DNA of 64,000 nt from an uncultured Planctomycetota bacterium (GCA_963849325.1 CAWKHF010000004.1:32001-96000), one strand, 5' to 3'. Shown: positions 1 to 11,873, numbered from the stretch's first letter. The notes: a model not told the origin generated them from the letters alone. Translations and numbers: made by a program.

Positions 1-1
1 C

Positions 2-3000
2 TCCACGGTTTCCGGAGGCGGTTACATTGGTGCCTGGCTCGCGGCCTGGATCAAACGGGAGGGAAATCCGCTGGAGGTGGAGCAACAGCTCAAACCCAAT
101 CGGGAGAAACAGGCGGAGGCTCGTCGCCTGCTGGCCAAGGACATGGTCGTGGAAGAGGAGCCGGAGCCGATTTACCACCTCCGTTCTTTCAGCAATTACC
201 TCTCGCCGCGCATGGGTTGGTTCTCCATCGACACCTGGACCCTGGTGTCGATCTATTTGCGAAACTTTCTGCTGAACCTGGCCGTGCTCGTTCCCATGAT
301 GCTGGCGCTGGTTCTGCTCTCGCGTCTGCTCCTGCTGGTGTTTTATTGGCAGCCGCCAGCCTCGATCTCCTGGTTGCCGTCGCTGGGCTGTGTGGTGTTT
401 GCGACCTTCTTGCTTGTGATTGCCTTTGTCAACCTCACGGGGGTGTTGCGGGACCAACTTCAGACTCCGCCGTCGCCCGCGGCGACGGAGTCTTCCGCTG
501 CCTCCCGGAAGATTCCGTATTGGGAAACCCTGTCGCCTCGAAGGCGAGTTGCTTTCCAGCTGCATGTGTGGGTGTTCGTCCCCCTGCTCACCGCGTCCCT
601 CTTCATCTCCTGGCTGTTTCGTGGAAACTTCCTTTCCTTCACTCCGCGGAACTGGGAAGTTCCGGAACGGCCCCTCATCCTCTCGCTCGGTTTCGGCATC
701 GTTTTCGGATTCGTTCTCGGATTCGTCCGATTCGTCGTTCTCTTCTGCCTCTGCTGCAAGCCCAAGATCGAGGACGCTCTGTGGACGGCCTTTTACAGTT
801 TCCTCTCGGGCTTGCTGGGAGGTTTCCTGTTCTCGATTTACTTTATGGCCGGACTGTGGACCCGTTACGAAGCGATGCAGCCGGCGGCCGCGCTGGCGTT
901 CGGACCGCCTGTGTTTCTTGGCGTATTCCTGCTTGGAGTTGTGATGGAAATCGGCCTTCACGGCCGGAAGCTCGAGGAGAACACGCGCGAATGGTGGGGG
1001 ACGATCGGAGGATATCTCCTGATCTACCTCGTCGGCTGGCTGGCCTTCTTCGCGATCACTCTCTTCAGCGAACCGCTGCTGGAATGGCTCAATCTGACGC
1101 AATGGATCAACGATCGCTTGCTCAAGACCGGACTGGCCGCGACCTGGATCACGACGGCGGTGGCGGGTGCCTTGTCGGGGCGCAGTCAACAGACGCGGAA
1201 CGGACTGGGCAACCGCGGCCTGGAGTGGCTGGGCATCATCGCTCCGCCCGTGTTCGTGGTCGGCCTCCTGGTGGTTGTCTCCCACTTCGCCACCGCCCTT
1301 GTCGAGGGCCCCGACCAGGACTACTGGGAACGGGTGAAGTCCACGCAGTTTCACGGGGTGGTGATCTGGCTCGTTGTGGGTGTGGGATTCGCTCTCCTCA
1401 GTGGCAAGCACGGCGATGTCAATCTCTTCTCTCAGCACGGCACGTATGCCAACCGCTTGATCCGCTGCTATCTCGGGGCTTCCCGGCGGAAGCTCAGCTG
1501 GCGCAAACGCGACGGCGACGACCTGTTGCGGGGCACTCCGGCCACGCTGAAACCTCCCGAGCGGCGCATCCGGGATTGGAGGACGGGACGGGGCGGAGCT
1601 CCCACCGGCAACGATGAGAGCCACGAGCGCCAGGCGGACCTGATCACCGGGTTTGATCCCGACGACGACATTCTGCTCAGCGATCTCCAGATTGGAAAGA
1701 TGCACACGGACCAGAAAACCTACTGGGGGCCTTTCCTGATCGTCAACACCGCCCTGAATCTCGAAACGGGTGATGAGCTGGCCTGGCAAGAGCGCAAGGC
1801 CGACTCCTTCGTGCTAACGTCGCTGTCCGGCGGCAGCAAAACAACGGGTTACCGATCGCTACCGTCTTACAACCCCGAGCAGCCCGAGCAGTCGAGTAAT
1901 CTCACCATCGGTCGCGCCATGGCCATCTCCGGCGCCGCGGCCAGCCCCAACATGGGCTATCACTCCTCGCCGCCCCTGGCGTTCCTGATGACCATCTTCA
2001 ACGTGCGCCTGGGGTGGTGGATGCAGAACCCACGCCGATCCGGTTGGCGAGCCGGCAGCCCGGCCCGGTGGGACCTGATCCTGCACGAGTTGCTCGGTCA
2101 AGCCAACGAGAAGGGGCGCTATATTTACCTTTCCGACGGCGGCCACTTCGAGAACCTCGGCGCCTACGAGCTGATCCGTCGCCGTTGCCGGTTCATCGTC
2201 ATCTGTGACGCGGACGCGGATCCTCTCTACAACTTCTTCGACCTGGGAAACTTGGTCCGCAAGTGCCGCAATGATTTCGGCATTCGCATCGAGATCAACG
2301 TCGCCGCCCTTCGACCCCAGGGAACCGACCGACGCAGCCGCTGGCACTGCGCCATCGGCGCCATTCGCTACGATGATCTCAACAGCAATTTTCTGCCGGG
2401 CATCCTCGTTTACCTCAAGTCGTCCCTGACCGGCAATGAACCGTCCGACATCCTGGCTTACGCGGACCAGTTCCCGACTTTCCCGCATCAGAGCACCGCG
2501 AACCAGTTCTTTACCGAGTCCCAGTTCGAGAGTTACCGCGGCCTGGGCTTCCACATTATCCAGGAGGTCTTCGGCGAGGTGACCCATCGGCATGACATCA
2601 AGTGTGAACGGGAGCCGAGCGAAGACGAGATGACGACGAACCGGCAGATCTTTTCCCGGTTGCGTCGTCGCTGGTTCCCGCCTCCGCCCAACCTGGAACC
2701 GAACTTCCTGGAGTCCGTGAAGGGATTTCTGGCCGTACACCAGGCGTTGCGTCGCGAGAAATCCCTCGCGGACCTGACCAGCGATTTGTACCCGGAAATG
2801 GAGAACCTGTTACGGGACCAATCCGAGGATGGCGAGGACCGTGAGGAGCAGATGGGCGAGGGCCAGCAAACTCCTCCGCCGGAAACTCCAGAGGCAGCAG
2901 CCGCGGCGACCAACCCGTTACACGGGGAGACGCCGGCCGAACCGGCGCAAGGTGTCGAAGGGAAGCACGGTCCAGCGTTGAATGCCGAGGATCCTGGCGG

Positions 3001-3973
3001 AGCCAATCCCGGATCGGCGAACGGCCGGAAGACGAAGGAAGCGGCGGAAGCCCGGAATCGGCATGGCGCCGAATTGCACGCCGTCAGCCTGATGCTTCAG
3101 GTCATGGAGAACGCCTGGCTGGGCTTGAAACTCGGTCAGTATTACGAACACCCCCTCAACCGCGGCTGGATGACCGTGTTCCGCCGCTGGTCGAACACCG
3201 AAGCCTTCAGCAAACATTGGCCGGCGCTGCGCGGCCAATATAGTCAGGAGTTCGTCTGGTTCTGCGAGAAGGAGCTGAAACTCCTGATGTGGGACATCCG
3301 TGCCCAGCGACTCTCGTCGAAGATGACGCCTCTCCTGGACGACATCCGAAACGATCGGATCATGGATGACAAGCCTTGTCCTCCGAATGATTCCGAGAAG
3401 CGCGACCTGGCAAATCTGAGCAAGGAATTCGCCTTCGACTGGTTCCGGGAAGACGAAGAGCGCCGAGGGTTGCCGGACCTCCTGAAAAAAGCGCTTGAGC
3501 TGTCGGATCAGCTCAAAAGGGAACCCTACATCTGGATCATTCGCTTGACCAACGCCAGCAAGGAAGGGGAGAAAGTTCTGGGAGAAGGGAACGCCGTGTA
3601 CGCTTGCGGGGTCATTCTGCTGTTCAAGCCCCTCTTCCCCAAGGAGACAACAGACCCCAAAGAGACAACAGACCCGGGGAACCAATTCGAGTTTTTTGTC
3701 TGGATCGATGGTCCGTACCGCAACCAGAGCATCGGCCGTGATCCAGACTGTGTGCAGCAAGCTCTCAAGACGATTCGGTCGGAGTTGAAAACGGAGTTGA
3801 ACAAGGAGTTCTTCCTGTTCGCTCGCTATCCGGAAGAAGGGAAGGCGGAGGGAAACGAGCCGCTCGAACGGTCGCTGTGGTCAAACTTCTTCCATTACTA
3901 CGACTTCCATCGCGCCAAATCCGAGGAGTTCGGGCGCAAGCAGGATTTGATCTTCGTCTCGCGGTCGAACTGA
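2..3973 (+). CDS. Large membrane patatin/cPLA2-like phospholipase with a C-terminal GNAT-like extension (5' end outside the window)
   Basis: Frame is open from base 2 and reads STVSGGGYIG (nucleophile elbow). It continues with many hydrophobic TM-like segments, AISGAAASPNMG, and LSDGGHFENLG (catalytic Asp motif, ~2126-2155). The C-terminal ~150 aa contain VWIDGPYRNQSIG and FFHYYDF. Confidence 0.85.
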   Translation, partial: STVSGGGYIGAWLAAWIKREGNPLEVEQQLKPNREKQAEARRLLAKDMVVEEEPEPIYHLRSFSNYLSPRMGWFSIDTWTLVSIYLRNFLLNLAVLVPMMLALVLLSRLLLLVFYWQPPASISWLPSLGCVVFATFLLVIAFVNLTGVLRDQLQTPPSPAATESSAASRKIPYWETLSPRRRVAFQLHVWVFVPLLTASLFISWLFRGNFLSFTPRNWEVPERPLILSLGFGIVFGFVLGFVRFVVLFCLCCKPKIEDALWTAFYSFLSGLLGGFLFSIYFMAGLWTRYEAMQPAAALAFGPPVFLGVFLLGVVMEIGLHGRKLEENTREWWGTIGGYLLIYLVGWLAFFAITLFSEPLLEWLNLTQWINDRLLKTGLAATWITTAVAGALSGRSQQTRNGLGNRGLEWLGIIAPPVFVVGLLVVVSHFATALVEGPDQDYWERVKSTQFHGVVIWLVVGVGFALLSGKHGDVNLFSQHGTYANRLIRCYLGASRRKLSWRKRDGDDLLRGTPATLKPPERRIRDWRTGRGGAPTGNDESHERQADLITGFDPDDDILLSDLQIGKMHTDQKTYWGPFLIVNTALNLETGDELAWQERKADSFVLTSLSGGSKTTGYRSLPSYNPEQPEQSSNLTIGRAMAISGAAASPNMGYHSSPPLAFLMTIFNVRLGWWMQNPRRSGWRAGSPARWDLILHELLGQANEKGRYIYLSDGGHFENLGAYELIRRRCRFIVICDADADPLYNFFDLGNLVRKCRNDFGIRIEINVAALRPQGTDRRSRWHCAIGAIRYDDLNSNFLPGILVYLKSSLTGNEPSDILAYADQFPTFPHQSTANQFFTESQFESYRGLGFHIIQEVFGEVTHRHDIKCEREPSEDEMTTNRQIFSRLRRRWFPPPPNLEPNFLESVKGFLAVHQALRREKSLADLTSDLYPEMENLLRDQSEDGEDREEQMGEGQQTPPPETPEAAAAATNPLHGETPAEPAQGVEGKHGPALNAEDPGGANPGSANGRKTKEAAEARNRHGAELHAVSLMLQVMENAWLGLKLGQYYEHPLNRGWMTVFRRWSNTEAFSKHWPALRGQYSQEFVWFCEKELKLLMWDIRAQRLSSKMTPLLDDIRNDRIMDDKPCPPNDSEKRDLANLSKEFAFDWFREDEERRGLPDLLKKALELSDQLKREPYIWIIRLTNASKEGEKVLGEGNAVYACGVILLFKPLFPKETTDPKETTDPGNQFEFFVWIDGPYRNQSIGRDPDCVQQALKTIRSELKTELNKEFFLFARYPEEGKAEGNEPLERSLWSNFFHYYDFHRAKSEEFGRKQDLIFVSRSN
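3638..3677 (+). repeat. 18-bp in-frame tandem repeat (PKETTD x2)
   Basis: cccaaggagacaacagac / cccaaagagacaacagac. Confidence 0.8.
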
Positions 3974-4016
3974 CCCGCGCGGCCGCTTCTCATCGCAATG
4001 AGGGGGAACCATCTCC

Positions 4017-6742
4017 ATGCTACGTCCAGAGGCCCGGCCGCTCGATTGGGCAGTGCTCGACCAGGCCCAACAAAAGGCCACCCACCGAGTCCTGACCTTG
4101 CTCCAGGAGGCCGTCGCGGATCTTCTCTTTGGAAAGGCCGCGACACGAAGTCAAGGACCAGCGCGACAGCGCCTTTCCCCTCGACCACGACCGCTCCAGC
4201 CGCATCCTCCTTCTTTCCGGAGAAAGAGGCACCGGGAAGACCACCGTGCTGCTGTCCCTCATTCAGCTCACGGAAGAGAAGAGCGGTTCGCTCCCGGAGG
4301 ACGTGAGCAAAGTGTTGGGCGACCTGAGCCACCGGCTGGTCTGGCTGGCTCCGATCGACATGGAGCCGTTGGCCGAGCCGACCAATCTCCTGGCGGCGAT
4401 TCTAGCTCGTTTCAGCGAGGCGGCGCGGGGGCGGGGCGGGGAGGAACGCGACGTCGGCGGTCTGCTCGAGTCCCGGTCGGAATCGCGCGATACGCTGCTG
4501 CAACTACAGCATCTGGAGACCAACGTCGCCCTGGCTTGGGATGGCAACCTGGCCGCTCGCGGCGGCCAGCTCGATCCGGACAACTTCGCGGTCGAGGTGA
4601 TGCGGACGGAACGCGCCCGCCTGGCCCTGAATCGAAGCCTCAAACTGGCCCTCGACGATCTGGCTCGGAAGGTGTTCGGCAAGGATGGGCGCGACGGCGT
4701 GAGCAATCCGCTGTTCGTGCTGCCGGTGGACGACTTTGACCTCAATCCGCTGCGCTGCCTGGATCTGCTGCGCGTCTTGCGGATGGTCTCCGTGCCGCGT
4801 CTGTTCACTCTGGTGCTGGGCGACGTCAAGGTGGCGGAGATGCTCTTCAACCTCAAGCTCTCCGGCGACTTCGCCCGTCTGGCGGGAAGGTCCGGGCGCG
4901 AGGACTTGCTGTCACTGTCCGCGGAGGACGTGCGGGGCCTGGCCGGCGAGGTTGCCGCCAACGCCATCCGCAAGCTCCTCCCTCCGGGGCAGATCATTCG
5001 GCTGGAACACATGGCCCCGGCCGAGGCCTTGAACTACGCCCCGGCGCCAGACAAACCGACGCTGCACCGCGTGCTGGCCGCCAGTCCCCTTCGCGTCGAT
5101 TCCCGCTACCAGCTGGCGTATCGCATGGCCAACCTGGCGGAGTTTTTCCAGCTGGACCCACTGGAGACGCGTCTTCCCGAATCAGCGGTGAAGAGAGCGG
5201 AACAGCCGGCCCCGGTGGGTCCGGGTGCGGAAATCGCGCGGAGCGTCTACACGGGAAGATGGGTCTTGAGCAACTCGCCGCGTCGCATTGCGGACCTCTG
5301 GCACGAGTTGGAACTTCACCTGTCGAAAACGGCTCGCGAGACGCTGGTGAGGGGAAAGCTGCCGCGGGAGTTGGCAGCTTCCTACGATCACCGTGCGCGC
5401 GATCGTCGGCGTGTTCGCCAATCACTGCCAGCGCAGCATCGCGGAAGACAGCCGGCTGCCGGATCGCGGGCGGCGAACCTTGCTCCACGCCATTCACAAG
5501 AACCGCGATGGCTACTGGGAATTGGATACGCGGGCCTATACGGTGAAATCGAAGACGGGGACGGCGTACGCCTTCGGAATCCCTCGCAGTACGGATTTCG
5601 TCGCGCGACCGGCAACCGTGCCGGACAAGAAAGGGAAAGGGAAGAATGCAACCTCCAGGATGCTGGAACCTCCCTATCAGCGCGTCGTCGCCTACCGCAC
5701 AAACGGCTGGTCCATTCGGGTCCCTCCCGACAAGCCGAAACAAGCTGTCGAACTCGATGACGCCACGGCGGCCGCCCTGATCGCCTTTCACGATCTCATC
5801 ATTTTGGCGAACCTCGGCACTCAGGGCATGGGAATCTGGGAGGAAATGGTGCGCCGGCGGACCCTGGAGTGGGATTCGCCCTTGACCGAATGGCGCTGCC
5901 AGGGCCGACGCGTGCGCATCAAGTGGCCGTCGGCCAGCTGGTCCACCTTCCGGGAGTACGATTTCTTCATCAGTGCCTGGCTTCGGGTGATTAACTGGCT
6001 GGATCAGGAGTATCCACCCCTCGTCAAGACGCTCTGTCGCTTTGAGGCGCTCGCCTTCGCCTGGATCGACCTCAATCTGACGGCCCTCGATCCCTGGGCA
6101 GCGCCCCCGACGGAGGGCAGCGAAGCACTTGGGAAGACGCCAACGTGGAAGCGTCTTGCCTGGCCGGCCGGCTTCCACGCCCAGGAAACCTCCAGCCGGA
6201 AACTAGACCCCAATTGGCCCCAACTCATTCAAAACCTCGGGGATTTCGTTCAGGAGTATTACCCCGTTAACGACACCACCGGCCAGCGCGAACAGAAGTT
6301 TCATCCGAGTATGTATCGCGCGTTGGACTGGTTGACGCAGATGGCTGTCTTCCTCATGCCGGAGACACTGGGCACCAGTCTCCGCACGACCCTCGACAAG
6401 TATTTCCCCGCCGAACTGGCGGAAGATTCAATTCTGGGACGAGGCCCAAGCGAAGTCGAGGGTCTTCTGGCGCTTTACGACTATTGGAAGAGTTGCGCGG
6501 AAGACATTCGCAGCCACCGGGCGCAGAAATTCGCTTATCTTCGCTCGCGCGGAGCGGTGGATAGCGCCGAATACCTGTGGACGGCCGAACCGCCGGCCTG
6601 TTTGCGGGACGAGAAGTACAAGCCGACGGAGGATCTGATCGACTACTTCCAGGAGGAGATCAGCCGGAACGAAAAGGCTTCGAAAGGACAGGCGAAAGCC
6701 TTCCCGAGCGCGGCGCAGGATGGGGAAAGCTCTGTTTCGTAG
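4017..6742 (+). CDS. rdrA: RdrA-like P-loop ATPase of a RADAR-type defence system (~900 aa; frameshifts near 4128 and 5390)
   Basis: SD-like GAGGGGG at 4000-4006, Walker A SGERGTGKTT, LAPID, Walker B LFVLPVDDFDLN, and IRKLLPPGQII. Three consecutive ORF pieces (4017, 4129, 5393) join, and the gene lies directly upstream of a large deaminase. Confidence 0.75.
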
Positions 6743-6753
6743 GAGGACCGTTG

Positions 6754-9377
6754 GTGAGTCGCTCGCGTCTGTCCCAGATCCCGATTGATCACGTGGTGGC
6801 GGAGGTGGCGGCCTTCCCGCTCGCCTCGGAGGCCGCGTTGCGCTGCCGGACCACGGAACTGGAGCGCGGCGATCAGGGCAGCGCGGGAAGGCTGTGGCGG
6901 GAGACCGAGCGCCACGTCCTGGGGCATTTCCCGAGTTTCTCGGTAGACGAAATGGTTGCCGTGCGCGATCGGGTCTGGTTCGGCGAGCGACGCCGCACCA
7001 ACCAACCGCTCCCCCTGGTGCGCTACTTGCGAACCGTCGCCCGGTTGTATCTCCGCCGGGAGGGCGACCGCGTGGTGCCGCAGCTGCCGGACGAAGAGTG
7101 GCAGCGACGGCACGGCGCCGCCCTCACGGGACCGCTGAGAAGCGCACGCGCGGTTCGCCTGGCGCTGGCTGTCCTTCGCGCTGCCCGCCGACTTGCTGCT
7201 GGCCGCCCTCGACGGCGCGCACCTTCCCTCCAGCATCCACCTCCTTTCGCCGGCCCTTGACCGAATGCTGCGCGACCGCAACTACGCCGAAACGCACGTC
7301 CACCTGGGTTGCACTATATCCTTCCCCCACCTCTGGGTCTGTGCCCTGCGGGTGCTGGCCGACCCCGCCACCAAGCGGGAGCGAACGTTCCACAGTCCCG
7401 GCGCCTCCCTCGAGGAAGGTCGCCAGCTGGGACCGTGGCTGCTGTCAGCGGCCCTCGCCCGGTACGTGCTGGCGGCTTACCTGACCTGGGGCAGACCGGC
7501 GGGAACCTTCGCGCAGTTCCTCGCTGGTCCCGTCCGCCAGCGCGTCACCCGGGACGCCGGCGCGGCCGCCTATGCGTTGTTATCGCTGTGTCTCTCCGAG
7601 CTCCTGCGCGGCGAACTTCAGTGCGATGATTGTTCCTTCGCCAATCGCCAGGGGTTGTATGCCCACCTGACGGCGGTAACAGCCCGGCGGTTTCCCAAGG
7701 AGCTGGCGGCCATCCATACGGCCGATTCGATTGCGGTTTTCTTCCCGGCTCGCGGCGACGGCCCGACGCCCGAGATGGGCTTCATCGCGGCGGGCTTGCG
7801 GCACCTGGAACTCCAACTGGCGGAGCCTCCCGACCCGACCTTTGCCATCCTGTTCTGGCAGGTGCTGCGCATCCGAGCGCTATTCTTTCGCCACGTGGTC
7901 CAGCGTCCCATGACGCCCGGCCTCCAGTGGTTTCTCCGTTTCTACGAGCGAATGAAAGCGGTCAGCCGGATCTTCTCCAAGGAAGCGCTCTTCCACTCGG
8001 CGGCCAAGCAGGGAGGGCAGGAATTCGGCCTGAGTTCGCTTGAGGTGCGCACGGCGCCGGACGCATCGGTGCGCAAGCTGTACAAGGAAATTCAGGCGAT
8101 CGATCGCGCGGCCGCCAACTACCAGCCTTTGGAGTATGGGATAGTGTTTCACCTGGTGCGCAACCGTGGCGGAGGGGCCCTGGAAGGCGAGCCAAGGCCG
8201 CACGGACTGTGGAGTAACGCGGATCCCGATTGCCGAATCCTTCCCAGGCCGGCCGGCAATCCGACCGGCTATCGCTATGCCATGGTTTACCAGGAGAAGC
8301 GGCAGGAGGTGCTGGCCTTCGCCTGGATGCTTCGGCATTATCCGCTGTCGCTGCAAATCGTGCGCGGGCTGGATCTCTGCACGGATGAGCTGGGCGTGCC
8401 GACGTGGGTTTTCGTTCCCTTGATCCGCCACATGCAGTCGGCCGGCCAGCGCGCCTCGGCCTATCTCCGTCGCTTCGGCCTGGAGGTGCCGCCGCTGCGG
8501 CTGACGGTCCATGCGGGCGAGGACTTCGTCCACTTGCTGACGGGCCTGCGCCACGTCGATGAGGTGGGGCGCTACCTCGATCTCCGGCAAGGCAGTCGAA
8601 TCGGCCACGGCCTAGCCCTGGGGGTGGACCCGCGCGAGTCGGCGCGACGGGCCGGCCGCATTCCGGTGACCTGCGAAGAGCGGCTCTTCGATCTCGCCTG
8701 GGAGTGGGACTGGGTGGCCCGCGAAGGGATGAACTATTCGAGCTGCCGCCGCCAACTCGTGGAGCGGGAGATCGTTCGGCTCAGTGAGAAGGTCTTCGGC
8801 GATTTCCAGCTTACCCCGCACGACCTTGGCCGACTCCTCGACGATCTTCATGACCCGGTCATGCTGTGCCGAGCCGGCTTCCCCACCGGCTTTCCTCCGG
8901 GACGGAAATTCCTGCCAAATAACCGTCGTCTGCGCTGGCTTCACGCCTATCTGACGGACCCGGACCTGTTCCTGCGCAGGCGCACGATCGAGTGGGTGGA
9001 CCCCGACGCCGAAGGGCCCGTGCTTGCGGAGCTGCAATGTGGCATCCGCCGCAAGTTCGCGGAATACGGCATCGTGGTCGAGGTCAACCCCACCTCCAAC
9101 CTCCTCATCGGGGACCTTCAGGATCTTCGGAACCATCCGCTCTGGCGCCTACGTCCTCCGCGCGGCGACGGGGATTCGCCTCCGGTTTCGGTGTGCATCG
9201 GCTCGGACGATCCGCTGACTTTCGCCACCAGCCTGCCCGTGGAGTATCAATTCCTGCATGATGCCCTGACCCTAGCGGGACTCTCCGAAGAAGAGGCGCG
9301 CTCCTGGCTGGAGGGAGGCGCGGGCGTGCGGCCTGGAGAACCGCTTCACGGTCCCGCGCCTGCGGGTGGCCGATTGA
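6754..9377 (+). CDS. rdrB: RdrB-like large adenosine deaminase (~870 aa; frameshifts near 7150 and 9318; true stop 9377 or 9423)
   Basis: AGGAGG at 6741-6746 overlaps the ATPase stop codon. Adenosine-deaminase motifs appear in order: ETHVHLG, GLDLCTDE, TVHAGEDF, RIGHGLALG, EVNPTSN, GSDDP. Size is far above a housekeeping Add. Confidence 0.8.
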
Positions 9378-9649
9378 GAAATTGCGCAATGTGGAGGACA
9401 CCGTTGTTCCGTTGGTCCCTTAGCTGGGCACTTTTCTCCAACCCTTTGCCGGGCGAAGGCATCGAGAGCTTGTCCACAACCGCGTCGGATACTATGGAAC
9501 AGAAGTGAAGGCGGCTGTGCTGTTAGGAATGACGGCACGCTCTAATAGGATAGACGCGCACTCATTCGATTATTGCAACTCCCTGACCACCTGCGGTCAA
9601 GCTAAGTCGGAAACTCGGCTGTATCGGGTGTTTTTGCTTTGCTTGGTGG

Positions 9650-10251
9650 CTATCCGAGAGTACTGTCCCGATGTGCGCCCTTGACGTACTCGATGGCCCA
9701 CTTCGTGTAGTTATCCGCCGGGTAGCCGTCCTGCCACCTCTCCGCGCCGTTGACGGCGAGCAACTGCTTCTCGTAATAGGCTCCGGCATTGTCCGGGTGC
9801 TTCGGCCGATTCCACGCGATCTGGTAGTCCCAGTCGCGTCCAAAGCCGGCGTCCGTGCCGGTGTGCCACTTACCGATCTGGGCGGTGTGGTAGCCGTTGG
9901 CGCGGAATAGCGCCGGCCAGAACGGGCACCGCTTCGGATCATAGGTGCTGCCGGGGTATGGCCCCTCCATCCCCATCGACTGGATGCCGTGCGGGTGTCG
10001 CCCGGTGAGGAACGAGGCTCGCGGCGGCATGCACCATGCGCCAAGGTATGCCCCGCGGAAGCGCACGCCCGATTGGGCCAGCGCGTCGAGGTGCGGCGTC
10101 CGAATCTTCTTCTGTCCATAGCAACCGAGATCCCCCCATCCCAGGTCGTCGGCCAGGATCAGGACCATGTTCGGCTTTCGATCCGCCGCGCGGCGCCGGC
10201 CGCGAGGACCACGAATGGAACGAACGCCAGCAGCCTGCGCGTCGGCTTCAT
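9650..10251 (-). pseudogene. 3'-truncated sulfatase (frameshift near 10175)
   Basis: Signal-peptide-like start, ILADDLGWGDLG, CMPPRASFLTGR (CxPxR), IGKWH. Stops after ~200 aa at a junction near 9665. Confidence 0.8.
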
Positions 10252-10327
10252 GGAATCACCAGGTTGACAAGACCTTGTTCAGCAGCTCCGAACCAGTTCG
10301 TGCTGGGAGGCAGAGGGATCCTGCGCC

Positions 10328-11873
10328 CTACTTCCGCGGAGCCTTGAGGGTCTCCGACAGCCGGGCCTCCTGGGCCTTGAGCCACGTTTCGTAACCTTTA
10401 GCTCGACTCCCGACATACTTGTAGGTATCAAAGATCTCGCCCTTGCCCAGGGCACGGGGATCCTGCTCTTCACGGAGCATGCGAAACATCCGCTCGCGCA
10501 GTTCGGCCATCACCTGGGTATGGGGCGGATCCTGGGCGAGGTTGCGCAGGCACTCGGGGTCGTCGGCCAGACGATACAGCATGTCCGCCGGCCGCTTGCC
10601 GAAGCACAGCTCATAGTAGTGTCCGCCCAGGAGCTTGAGCGCTTCCTTGGTCGGGCCGGGATCGCAGTTGCCAAAATCCGTCTCCGGGTTGCAGGCTGGC
10701 CAGCGTTCGGGAAAGTAGTTGTGGACATAGAGAAACTCGGGCGTCCGAATCGCCCGCACCGGATAGCCCAGGTCGTTCGGCCGACCGATGTCGTGTCGCT
10801 CTTTGCCGATCAGCATCACCTTTCGCGCCGGATCGATCCAGCCGGACTTCTTCGAGCGCAAGAGGTCTGCGAAGCTGCGGCCGGTCATCTGCGCGGGCGG
10901 CTTCAACCCCGCCAGTTCCAGGTACGTCGGCGCCAGGTCGCGCACGTTGATGAAGTCCTCGACGACGCGGCCCGGTTTGACGGCCTCGCCCCAGCGGACG
11001 GCCAGCGGCAGGTGGAAGCCGTCCTCGAAGATCTGCCCCTTAACGTAGGGGAACGGCATCCCATGATCCGACGTGACCACGATGAGGGTGCGGTCCAACT
11101 CGCCCGCGTCTTCCAGCAACTGGAGCGCTCTGCCGATGTGGCGGTCGCCCCACTCGACTTCGATGGCGTAGTCAAGCAGGTCGGAGCGAACCGCCGCCAC
11201 ATCCGGCAGGTAGGCCGGCACCTTCACGTCCGCCGGACGTTTGCCGAGCCGGACGCCGGAGCCGCGCTCGTAGGGGCGGTGCGGCTCGTGGAAGCCCATC
11301 CAGAAGCAGAACGGTCGGCCCGCGGGCCGCTGCTTGAGGAAGGCGGCGAAGTTGCCAGCGTAGTCGTTCCGGCCGATCCCCGAGGCAGGCACCTTTTGCT
11401 TGAGCTGGTCGAAGCTCGGCCCCGCTGGGTTGCGCGGGAAGCCCGCGGCGGTCTTGAAGTCGCCCGGTCCCCAGCCCTTGCCGGTCAGGCCGATCGTGTA
11501 GCCGGCCTGTTCGAGCAGGTCGGGGTAGACAGCGAACCCGGACGGGAAAAGGCCGAAATGGCAGGCTGGCTTCTTTGAGCTGCCAGGTGTTGCGCCCGGT
11601 GAGGATGCTGGCGCGGCACGGACTGCACTTGGGGTTGGAGGTGAAGCCGTGTTTGAACAAGATGCCCTCGCGGGCGATGCGGTCGAAGTGGGGAGTCTTC
11701 ACCCAGGTACAACCATAGGCGCCGGAGTGATTCCAGCCCCAGTCATCGAAGATAATGAACAGAATGTTCGGGCGCTTGGCCTGCTCCGCAGCCTGCAGCC
11801 GAGGCCCGCCGCTCAGCGTGACAGCGGCCAGGGCCACGGTCACTGTCAGAGGAAAGGAAACGCTGCGCATCAC
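10328..11873 (-). CDS. Sulfatase (frameshifts near 11560 and 11395)
   Basis: RPNILFIIFDD, CSPCRASILTGR, EPHRPY, TSDHGMPF across joined frames. Confidence 0.85.

Follow-up and report, generated by a model that had tools for sequence, protein, structure and literature searches.

The closest described relatives of the locus reported here are the RADAR defence systems, which pair an ATPase, RdrA, with an adenosine deaminase, RdrB. In the sections of Duncan-Lowey et al. 2023 (PMC9994260) on which we draw, RADAR is found in 270 of about 38,000 genomes, and its phage-triggered conversion of ATP and dATP to ITP and dITP, its heptamer-dodecamer assembly and its protection against phage are experimentally defined. 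RADAR is among the least understood of the large defence complexes, with both infection sensing by RdrA and the sufficiency of ITP/dITP build-up at issue. Here we analyse a 64,000-nucleotide (nt) stretch of Planctomycetota DNA, G000:C4:32001-96000; this whole stretch is called the window, and coordinates are counted from its first letter. Three head-to-tail genes on its + strand, at -292..9423, encode a membrane-bound patatin-like phospholipase (PLP), a P-loop ATPase and an adenosine deaminase, in that order. The ATPase and the deaminase very probably represent a divergent RADAR-type lineage that falls under the curated cut-offs.

The pair shares several traits with the E. coli, C. rodentium and S. 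suis RADAR systems, as far as these are covered in the same sections of PMC9994260 and in the structures 8fnt, 8fnu, 8fnw, 8hr7 and 8hr8: the order ATPase then deaminase, tight spacing, proteins of about 900 residues each, and a rare and patchy distribution. The deaminase of the window has the RdrB-type core and catalytic motifs, and the ATPase of its lineage resembles RdrA over the whole length in a fold model. The locus differs in that the pair is very divergent, reaching 159 bits against the 800-bit NCBIfam equivalog cut-off for RdrB and 22.8 bits against the 600-bit cut-off for RdrA, and in that a gene for a giant membrane phospholipase lies upstream.

Membrane proteins as such are not foreign to RADAR: variants carrying SLATT or Csx27 proteins are mentioned in the portion of a review (PMC11676413) used here. 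As far as that portion goes, their genes occupy the same operon position as the PLP gene. PLP is not a two-helix protein of about 200 residues, however: it has 1421 residues, about ten membrane segments, and patatin and GNAT-like domains, and it gives neither a Csx27 match nor a SLATT match in Pfam or PADLOC. The primary source for the SLATT and Csx27 variants is said to be Gao et al. 2020.

CapV of CBASS, described in an excerpt of PMC12480259 as a patatin-like phospholipase that acts as an effector once a cyclic nucleotide activates it, offers a second comparison. As far as that excerpt shows, there, as here, the neighbour of a gene for a patatin-type Ser-Asp lipase encodes a defence enzyme that modifies nucleotides. 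In principle PLP, too, could have a nucleotide product as its trigger; activation by ITP or dITP would be pure conjecture. There is no cyclase gene among the flanking genes of the window locus, and whereas CapV-type enzymes are soluble and are encoded with a CD-NTase cyclase, PLP is predicted to be integral to the membrane, with an insertion that splits its patatin domain. A search of the literature found no report that combines RADAR or RdrB with a patatin; the supplementary tables of RADAR papers (for example the 270 systems of PMC9994260) may list such neighbours.

The ATPase-deaminase pair

The deaminase matches the RdrB models of PADLOC (E 5.2e-35) and NCBIfam (E 2e-46); for the NCBIfam scores of both genes, the pieces left by frame breaks were scored separately. 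An intact homolog of 905 residues, P0001, is 90% identical and aligns over all four deaminase pieces. The metal-binding and catalytic motifs HxH (ETHVH), HAGED and SDDP are invariant in an alignment of 40 deaminase homologs, and the profile of this alignment matches the solved RdrB structures 8fnw and 8fnv in the PDB (E 2.4e-50, profile positions 358-870). Among 8000 candidates scored, at least 463 are homologs at E<=1e-5, mostly of about 900 residues, with source labels of Gammaproteobacteria, Acidobacteria, Planctomycetes, Verrucomicrobia and Alphaproteobacteria. Most of the lineage comes from soil and water metagenomes.

The ATPase contains a Walker A motif, GERGTGKT, and a Walker B motif, VDDFD, and is matched by the RdrA models around Walker A only (E 3e-5). 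Five intact homologs from related loci were scanned with PADLOC: two match RdrA (best E 3.4e-9) and three do not. When a profile of 27 intact homologs is searched against the PDB, the top two matches are RdrA chains, 8fnt (E 5.3e-7) and 8hr7 (E 6.6e-7), and the matched region falls in two collinear stretches. The closest intact homolog, from locus L022, spans all three frames of the window gene in tblastn, with 52% and 34% identity to its two halves; it was this protein, and not the broken gene of the window, that was modelled (pLDDT 78, pTM 0.80). In Foldseek, the model has 20 matches at E<=0.001, every one of them to an RdrA chain and with alignments of about 900 columns; the next match is BrxC (E 1.5e-2). 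Identity to solved RdrA is 10-12% and the global TM-score only 0.23-0.32. On the strength of this model, the ATPase is predicted to be an RdrA-type AAA+ protein with a helical C-terminal lobe, the likeness being full-length and including that lobe.

We assembled 81 related loci with deaminase homologs. An ATPase homolog lies upstream of the deaminase in every one of the 46 that have at least 2.5 kb of room for it. The first-pass annotation had called the two genes a RADAR-type pair, and the RdrB models together with the profile and fold-model matches to solved RdrA and RdrB bear it out. The pair is rare and patchy: none of 60 relatives has it, three of 400 genomes in a phylum sample have the deaminase, and, besides the genome of the window, one of these 400, G089, has the full pair. 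A scan of genome contigs for further loci gave one only, L002. No relative of the pair was found among 17 pattern matches in viral contigs, plasmids gave no match, and tblastn finds no paralog of any of the three genes elsewhere in the genome.

The membrane phospholipase

Pfam Patatin (PF01734), with a cut-off of 27.7 bits, scores 34.3 bits on PLP and covers only its N-terminal part, residues 66-128. The oxyanion motif GGGIR (residues 70-74), the nucleophile motif TVSGG with Ser102 (codon at window 11-13) and SDGGH with Asp810 (codon at 2135-2137), the aspartate of the DG[GA] motif, are invariant in five homologs; in this family, a threonine replaces the first glycine of GxSxG. Ten hydrophobic 19-residue segments (Kyte-Doolittle mean >=1.6) lie in residues 179-566. 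Because they stand between Ser102 and Asp810, the patatin domain appears to be split by a membrane insertion. This region is poorly conserved and gap-rich in the homolog alignment.

The C-terminal 382 residues (1040-1421) were modelled with a mean pLDDT of 79.8 and a pTM of 0.77. All Foldseek matches listed for this tail in the PDB are GNAT acetyltransferases (best E 7.6e-4, probability 1.00), with a TM-score on the target of 0.44-0.54. Pfam GNAT appears below threshold (E 0.004-0.085) in four of eight PLP-family sequences scanned and is absent from the PLP of the window. The acyl-CoA-binding motif of GNAT enzymes is R/Q-x-x-G-x-G/A; in the corresponding region the homologs read YRNxGLGR and the window's PLP reads YRNQSIGR. 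Altogether, PLP is predicted, from its motifs and the tail model, to be a patatin-like phospholipase of the membrane, its motif set intact and its C-terminus GNAT-like. The multi-pass patatin-like protein of more than 1300 residues that had been proposed upstream of the pair is thus recovered. An 18-nt tandem duplication at window 3637-3672 yields PKETTD PKETTD in a loop of the GNAT-like tail where conservation is poor.

Association of the phospholipase with the pair

The link between PLP and the RADAR-like pair is real but rare. A relative about 88-91% identical in DNA (Logan contigs, one public run, X1) has contigs that tile the same three-gene order: one bridges the end of PLP and the ATPase, another the ATPase and the deaminase. 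The contig match ends exactly at the deaminase stop, and the spacer between PLP and the ATPase is 4 nt shorter. The adjacency recurs in L037, a distant metagenome locus, where the stop of a PLP homolog (profile E 3.2e-55), also with a GNAT-like tail, overlaps the ATPase start as ATGA. This protein stands no closer to the window's PLP, which ranks 120th of 124, than to other members of the family. The L037 deaminase is 43% identical to that of the window and is not its sister in the deaminase tree (FastTree, SH-like support only); that place is held by L022, with support 98. Since the L037 PLP belongs to another branch and the accompanying deaminase is not the window's sister, two separate pairings of PLP with RADAR are suggested. 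The arrangement, kept in the close relative and repeated in L037, is more than chance.

The explanation that we prefer is that the locus is an intact three-gene unit, which looks broken only through assembly indels. By analogy with solved RADAR, infection would lead the pair to convert ATP and dATP to ITP and dITP; PLP, probably transcribed together with it, would be an optional accessory, acting most likely as an effector that damages the membrane or as a second route to killing. Taken whole, with the accessory role of PLP included, we give this explanation an even chance; the functional role of PLP in the system, considered separately, is about evenly balanced too. What the sequences show is which genes these are, their order and spacing, and that the arrangement recurs; co-transcription, a function in defence and any coupling of lipase to deaminase are inferred.

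It is quite possible, if short of probable, that the pair is real and PLP an unrelated neighbour, be it an enzyme that remodels membrane lipids or a conflict gene acting by itself. On this view PLP would have been in place before the pair inserted behind it, or the two would have travelled jointly without cooperating. A number of results point this way and weigh against an accessory role. A six-frame profile search of every available flank of all 81 loci finds a PLP homolog in L037 only; the weak profile match in L079 is an ordinary patatin of 411 residues, 6 kb away. At least 600 nt upstream of the ATPase are available in 44 loci (about 40 distinct), and about 39 of the distinct ones are without PLP. 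It is absent from the 1.2 kb upstream in L022, the window's own sister, and from L002 and G089. PLP and deaminase occur together in none of the 60 relatives and in none of the three deaminase-bearing genomes of the phylum sample. The first-pass annotation had proposed PLP as a RADAR accessory, with enrichment beside rdrAB homologs as the expected sign. The adjacency does repeat, with ATGA, in L037; the enrichment is largely not found, with one PLP in 81 loci and none at L022.

Further points count on the same side. The 22 long PLP homologs (1660-2093 residues) include no fusion to an ATPase or a deaminase, and a scan of them returns only Patatin, plus GMC oxidoreductase in one. A complex prediction for residues 1-750 of the L037 ATPase with residues 160-407 of the L037 PLP, run without controls, scored 0.19 and 0.00 against a mark of 0.32 and weighs on neither side. 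No PADLOC model, CapV or other, matches PLP. In the window, PLP and the ATPase do not overlap but are separated by 43 nt. Consensus scans, which are weak, found no promoter-like or terminator-like site in this spacer, and to that extent speak for a joint transcript. On the same side, the promoter-like site that scores best (10 of 12 matches) is found 230 nt upstream of PLP, and a terminator-like hairpin comes after the deaminase. The promoter consensus is that of sigma-70, to which planctomycete promoters may not conform; the terminator-like scan found 8 sites against 9.7 expected from shuffles. The weakness of both scans tells against the accessory role.

The PLP family also leads a life of its own. 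It is very large, with at least 7881 homologs at E<=1e-10 among 8000 candidates scored, of 800-2100 residues. Without a deaminase, full-length homologs occur in 6 of the 60 relatives and profile matches in 18 of the 400 phylum genomes. In one genus the homologs stand amid the housekeeping genes CorA, EPSP synthase and RibD; the same genus has a caspase-DUF7379 gene adjoining a second PLP copy, and in single genomes a TIR-SLOG or an AAA-WHD gene lies near a PLP homolog. The PLP homologs of L114 and L117 have a fusion of DUF7379 to a caspase domain directly upstream. In two relatives, a class-3 lipase (Lipase_3) directly precedes the PLP homolog, at L016:8100-15257 and L021:322-4360, with a 4-nt overlap in L016, where a GMC oxidoreductase follows further upstream; the metagenome homolog P0212 is itself fused to a GMC oxidoreductase. 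These lipase and oxidoreductase genes hint that part of the family acts in the oxidation or hydrolysis of lipids, and the housekeeping, lipase and GMC-oxidoreductase contexts fit a role in lipid metabolism, again at the expense of an accessory function.

A genome of the same genus, G007, bears on the order of arrival. At its locus L019 (G007:C1:1272000-1291900), which has no RADAR genes, a PLP homolog with a broken frame lies 3.4 kb upstream of the NnrS ortholog. PLP may therefore have been resident before the pair arrived, a further point for an unrelated neighbour. An animal-haem-peroxidase-like gene and a DUF900 hydrolase gene precede the PLP homolog in L019.

Against mere neighbourhood stand, besides the overlap in L037 with its different PLP branch and divergent RADAR pair, the persistence of the three-gene order at about 10% nucleotide divergence and a rough estimate of coincidence: about 5% of the phylum genomes have PLP-like genes, about one each, which puts the chance of an immediate neighbour by coincidence at about 1 in 1000 for about 40 loci.

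The position taken by PLP is variable in related loci. A co-oriented gene lies at most 150 nt upstream of the ATPase in 17-18 of 39 loci, and it is of many kinds: a subtilase fused to an alpha/beta-hydrolase-like part (L039, L101), kinase-TPR (L046, L091), SIR2 (L057), SLATT_2 placed 47 nt before the ATPase (L085, L087), and several genes without a family match. PLP would add to this list of genes in the accessory position and would be by far the largest of them. Changing hydrolase, NADase and membrane genes thus stand beside the core pair of a large, mostly environmental RADAR lineage that the curated models miss. Such a changing set would suggest that RADAR is able to drive separate effectors. 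Of these neighbours, the patatin-GNAT membrane protein is the largest and least expected.

A bolder version, which we consider unlikely, is that the lineage is a sensor-deaminase engine with swappable killing modules, PLP, the module here and in L037, being switched on by ITP/dITP as a signal or by the activated ATPase. If this were true, nucleotide deamination would be coupled to destruction of the cell membrane, the RADAR product would be a second messenger, and PLP would define a new class of integral-membrane lipase effector. If PLP is uncoupled, what is left is a new divergent RADAR lineage in Planctomycetota beside an unrelated lipid enzyme, a result useful for annotation and otherwise ordinary.

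Locus layout, frame breaks and neighbouring genes

The features of the locus are collected in Table 1. PLP ends with TGA and the ATPase starts with ATG, preceded by the AGGGGGA of the spacer. The ATPase stop is a TAG at 6740-6742, overlapped by AGGAGG; the deaminase starts at TTG 6751 or GTG 6754, 8-11 nt further on, and its stop, at 9421-9423, was placed by tblastn with P0001. The co-orientation, the gaps of 43 nt and about 10 nt and the Shine-Dalgarno sequence of the deaminase over the ATPase stop, all noted in the first pass, are confirmed from the sequence.

Table 1. Features of the three-gene locus, in window coordinates.
Feature	Position	Strand	Basis
PLP (patatin-like phospholipase), 1421 residues	-292..3973 (within window 1..3973; full open reading frame (ORF) G000:C4:31708-35973)	+	continuous ORF
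Predicted multi-pass membrane insertion of PLP, residues 179-566	242..1405	+	hydrophobic segments
Conserved helical domain before the GNAT-like domain of PLP	from ~3030	+	
GNAT-like C-terminal domain of PLP	3272..3970	+	fold model
Spacer between PLP and ATPase, 43 nt, with ribosome-binding site AGGGGGA	3974..4016	+	sequence reading
RdrA-like P-loop ATPase, ~908 residues, three frames	4017..6742	+	motifs, tblastn, profile, fold model
RdrB-like adenosine deaminase, ~890 residues, four frame pieces	6751..9423	+	intact-homolog alignment, models, profile
Terminator-like hairpin, ~190 nt past the deaminase stop	9613..9629	+	consensus scan only

The ATPase runs in one frame from 4017 to about 4127, in a second from about 4129 to about 5316-5393 and in a third up to 6742, the frame changing near 4124-4128 and again within 5316-5393; the deaminase is broken near 7136, at 9313-9317 and at 9354-9360. 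There are thus five breaks in the 5.4 kb of the pair against none in the 4.3 kb of PLP, as would be seen if ATPase and deaminase were decaying pseudogenes and PLP alone functional. We hold this to be very improbable. In the same genome rpoB, rpoC and uvrA are each fragmented over several frames like the pair, from which we estimate that the assembly carries about one indel per kb; any broken gene of this genome therefore needs polishing before it is called a pseudogene. The 8.16 Mb assembly (G000) has only 14 contigs, yet its marker completeness is only 84.7%. The breaks aside, the deaminase retains all its catalytic residues as well as its high identity to an intact homolog. Compared with the window, the contigs of the close relative have indels at 4124, 9317 and 9354, matching three of the five break sites (among the 12 listed of 33 indels). 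Most likely, then, all five breaks are assembly errors and both genes are intact in the organism, in line with the first-pass view that the frameshifts call for polishing and do not signal decay. Programmed frameshifting was considered and rejected, since essential genes have breaks of the same kind. At G000:C1:334967-343005 and G000:C2:476809-482562, rpoB, rpoC and two uvrA-like genes are in multiple frames, some with an in-frame TGA.

The locus is flanked upstream by NorB and NnrS and downstream by a sulfatase on the opposite strand. Because these are housekeeping genes, PLP is not merely one item of a crowded defence island. Genes near the locus carry the planctomycete-specific families PSCyt1, PSCyt2, PSD1 and DUF1501, which mark the genome as that of a planctomycete. 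Neither a tRNA nor repeats, direct or inverted, were found on either side of the three genes. In same-genus genomes only NnrS is kept near the locus (NorB in one genome); the downstream sulfatase and later genes are not kept at the site, so that synteny allows no island borders to be drawn.

That the pair is a nucleotide-metabolism or signalling module which shares RADAR folds without serving defence is very improbable too: both proteins lie far under the curated RADAR cut-offs and show no phage, plasmid, integrase, tRNA or repeat context, but their distribution is patchy and non-vertical, homologs are labelled as five bacterial groups, the likeness to RdrA extends over the full length including the C-terminal lobe, and the neighbours in related loci include SIR2/ThsA-like genes, SLATT_2, a subtilase matching PADLOC models and MADS-like ATPases.

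Several related loci show further arrangements around the pair. In about a dozen of them, the gene directly after the deaminase is TauD-like. One subclade of pairs has a recurring opposite-strand cassette close by (L046:12491-18814, L061, L062, L071, L088, L091, L099/L100), consisting of a UvrA/ABC-like ATPase of about 1450 residues (PADLOC mad3 E 6e-53, also mad8), a TauD-like protein, a methyltransferase and a 160-residue protein; in these loci a further TauD-like gene abuts the deaminase. The cassette may be a MADS-like system linked to RADAR-like genes.

At L097:717-6179, one small gene further upstream of the pair, a protein of 1821 residues combines DUF7379, an LCAT/DUF676 lipase-like part, a CHAT protease and TPR-S. 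Five co-oriented genes precede the pair at L079:32-6822 and look like another defence cluster; they encode the 411-residue patatin mentioned above, a 614-residue protein, an LmuA/metallo-beta-lactamase-type PADLOC match, a 313-residue protein and an endonuclease/exonuclease/phosphatase-like protein. Two RADAR-like deaminase genes lie about 6.6 kb apart on one metagenome contig (L053:2-2983 and L053:7218-12094), the second with its own ATPase. A single ORF of 1867 residues covers the ATPase and deaminase homologs at L080:4249-9849, which may be a natural fusion or a sequencing artefact. In the window itself, the sulfatase gene (9653-11873, - strand) is split over three ORFs with Sulfatase and SGSH_C matches, probably through the same assembly problem.

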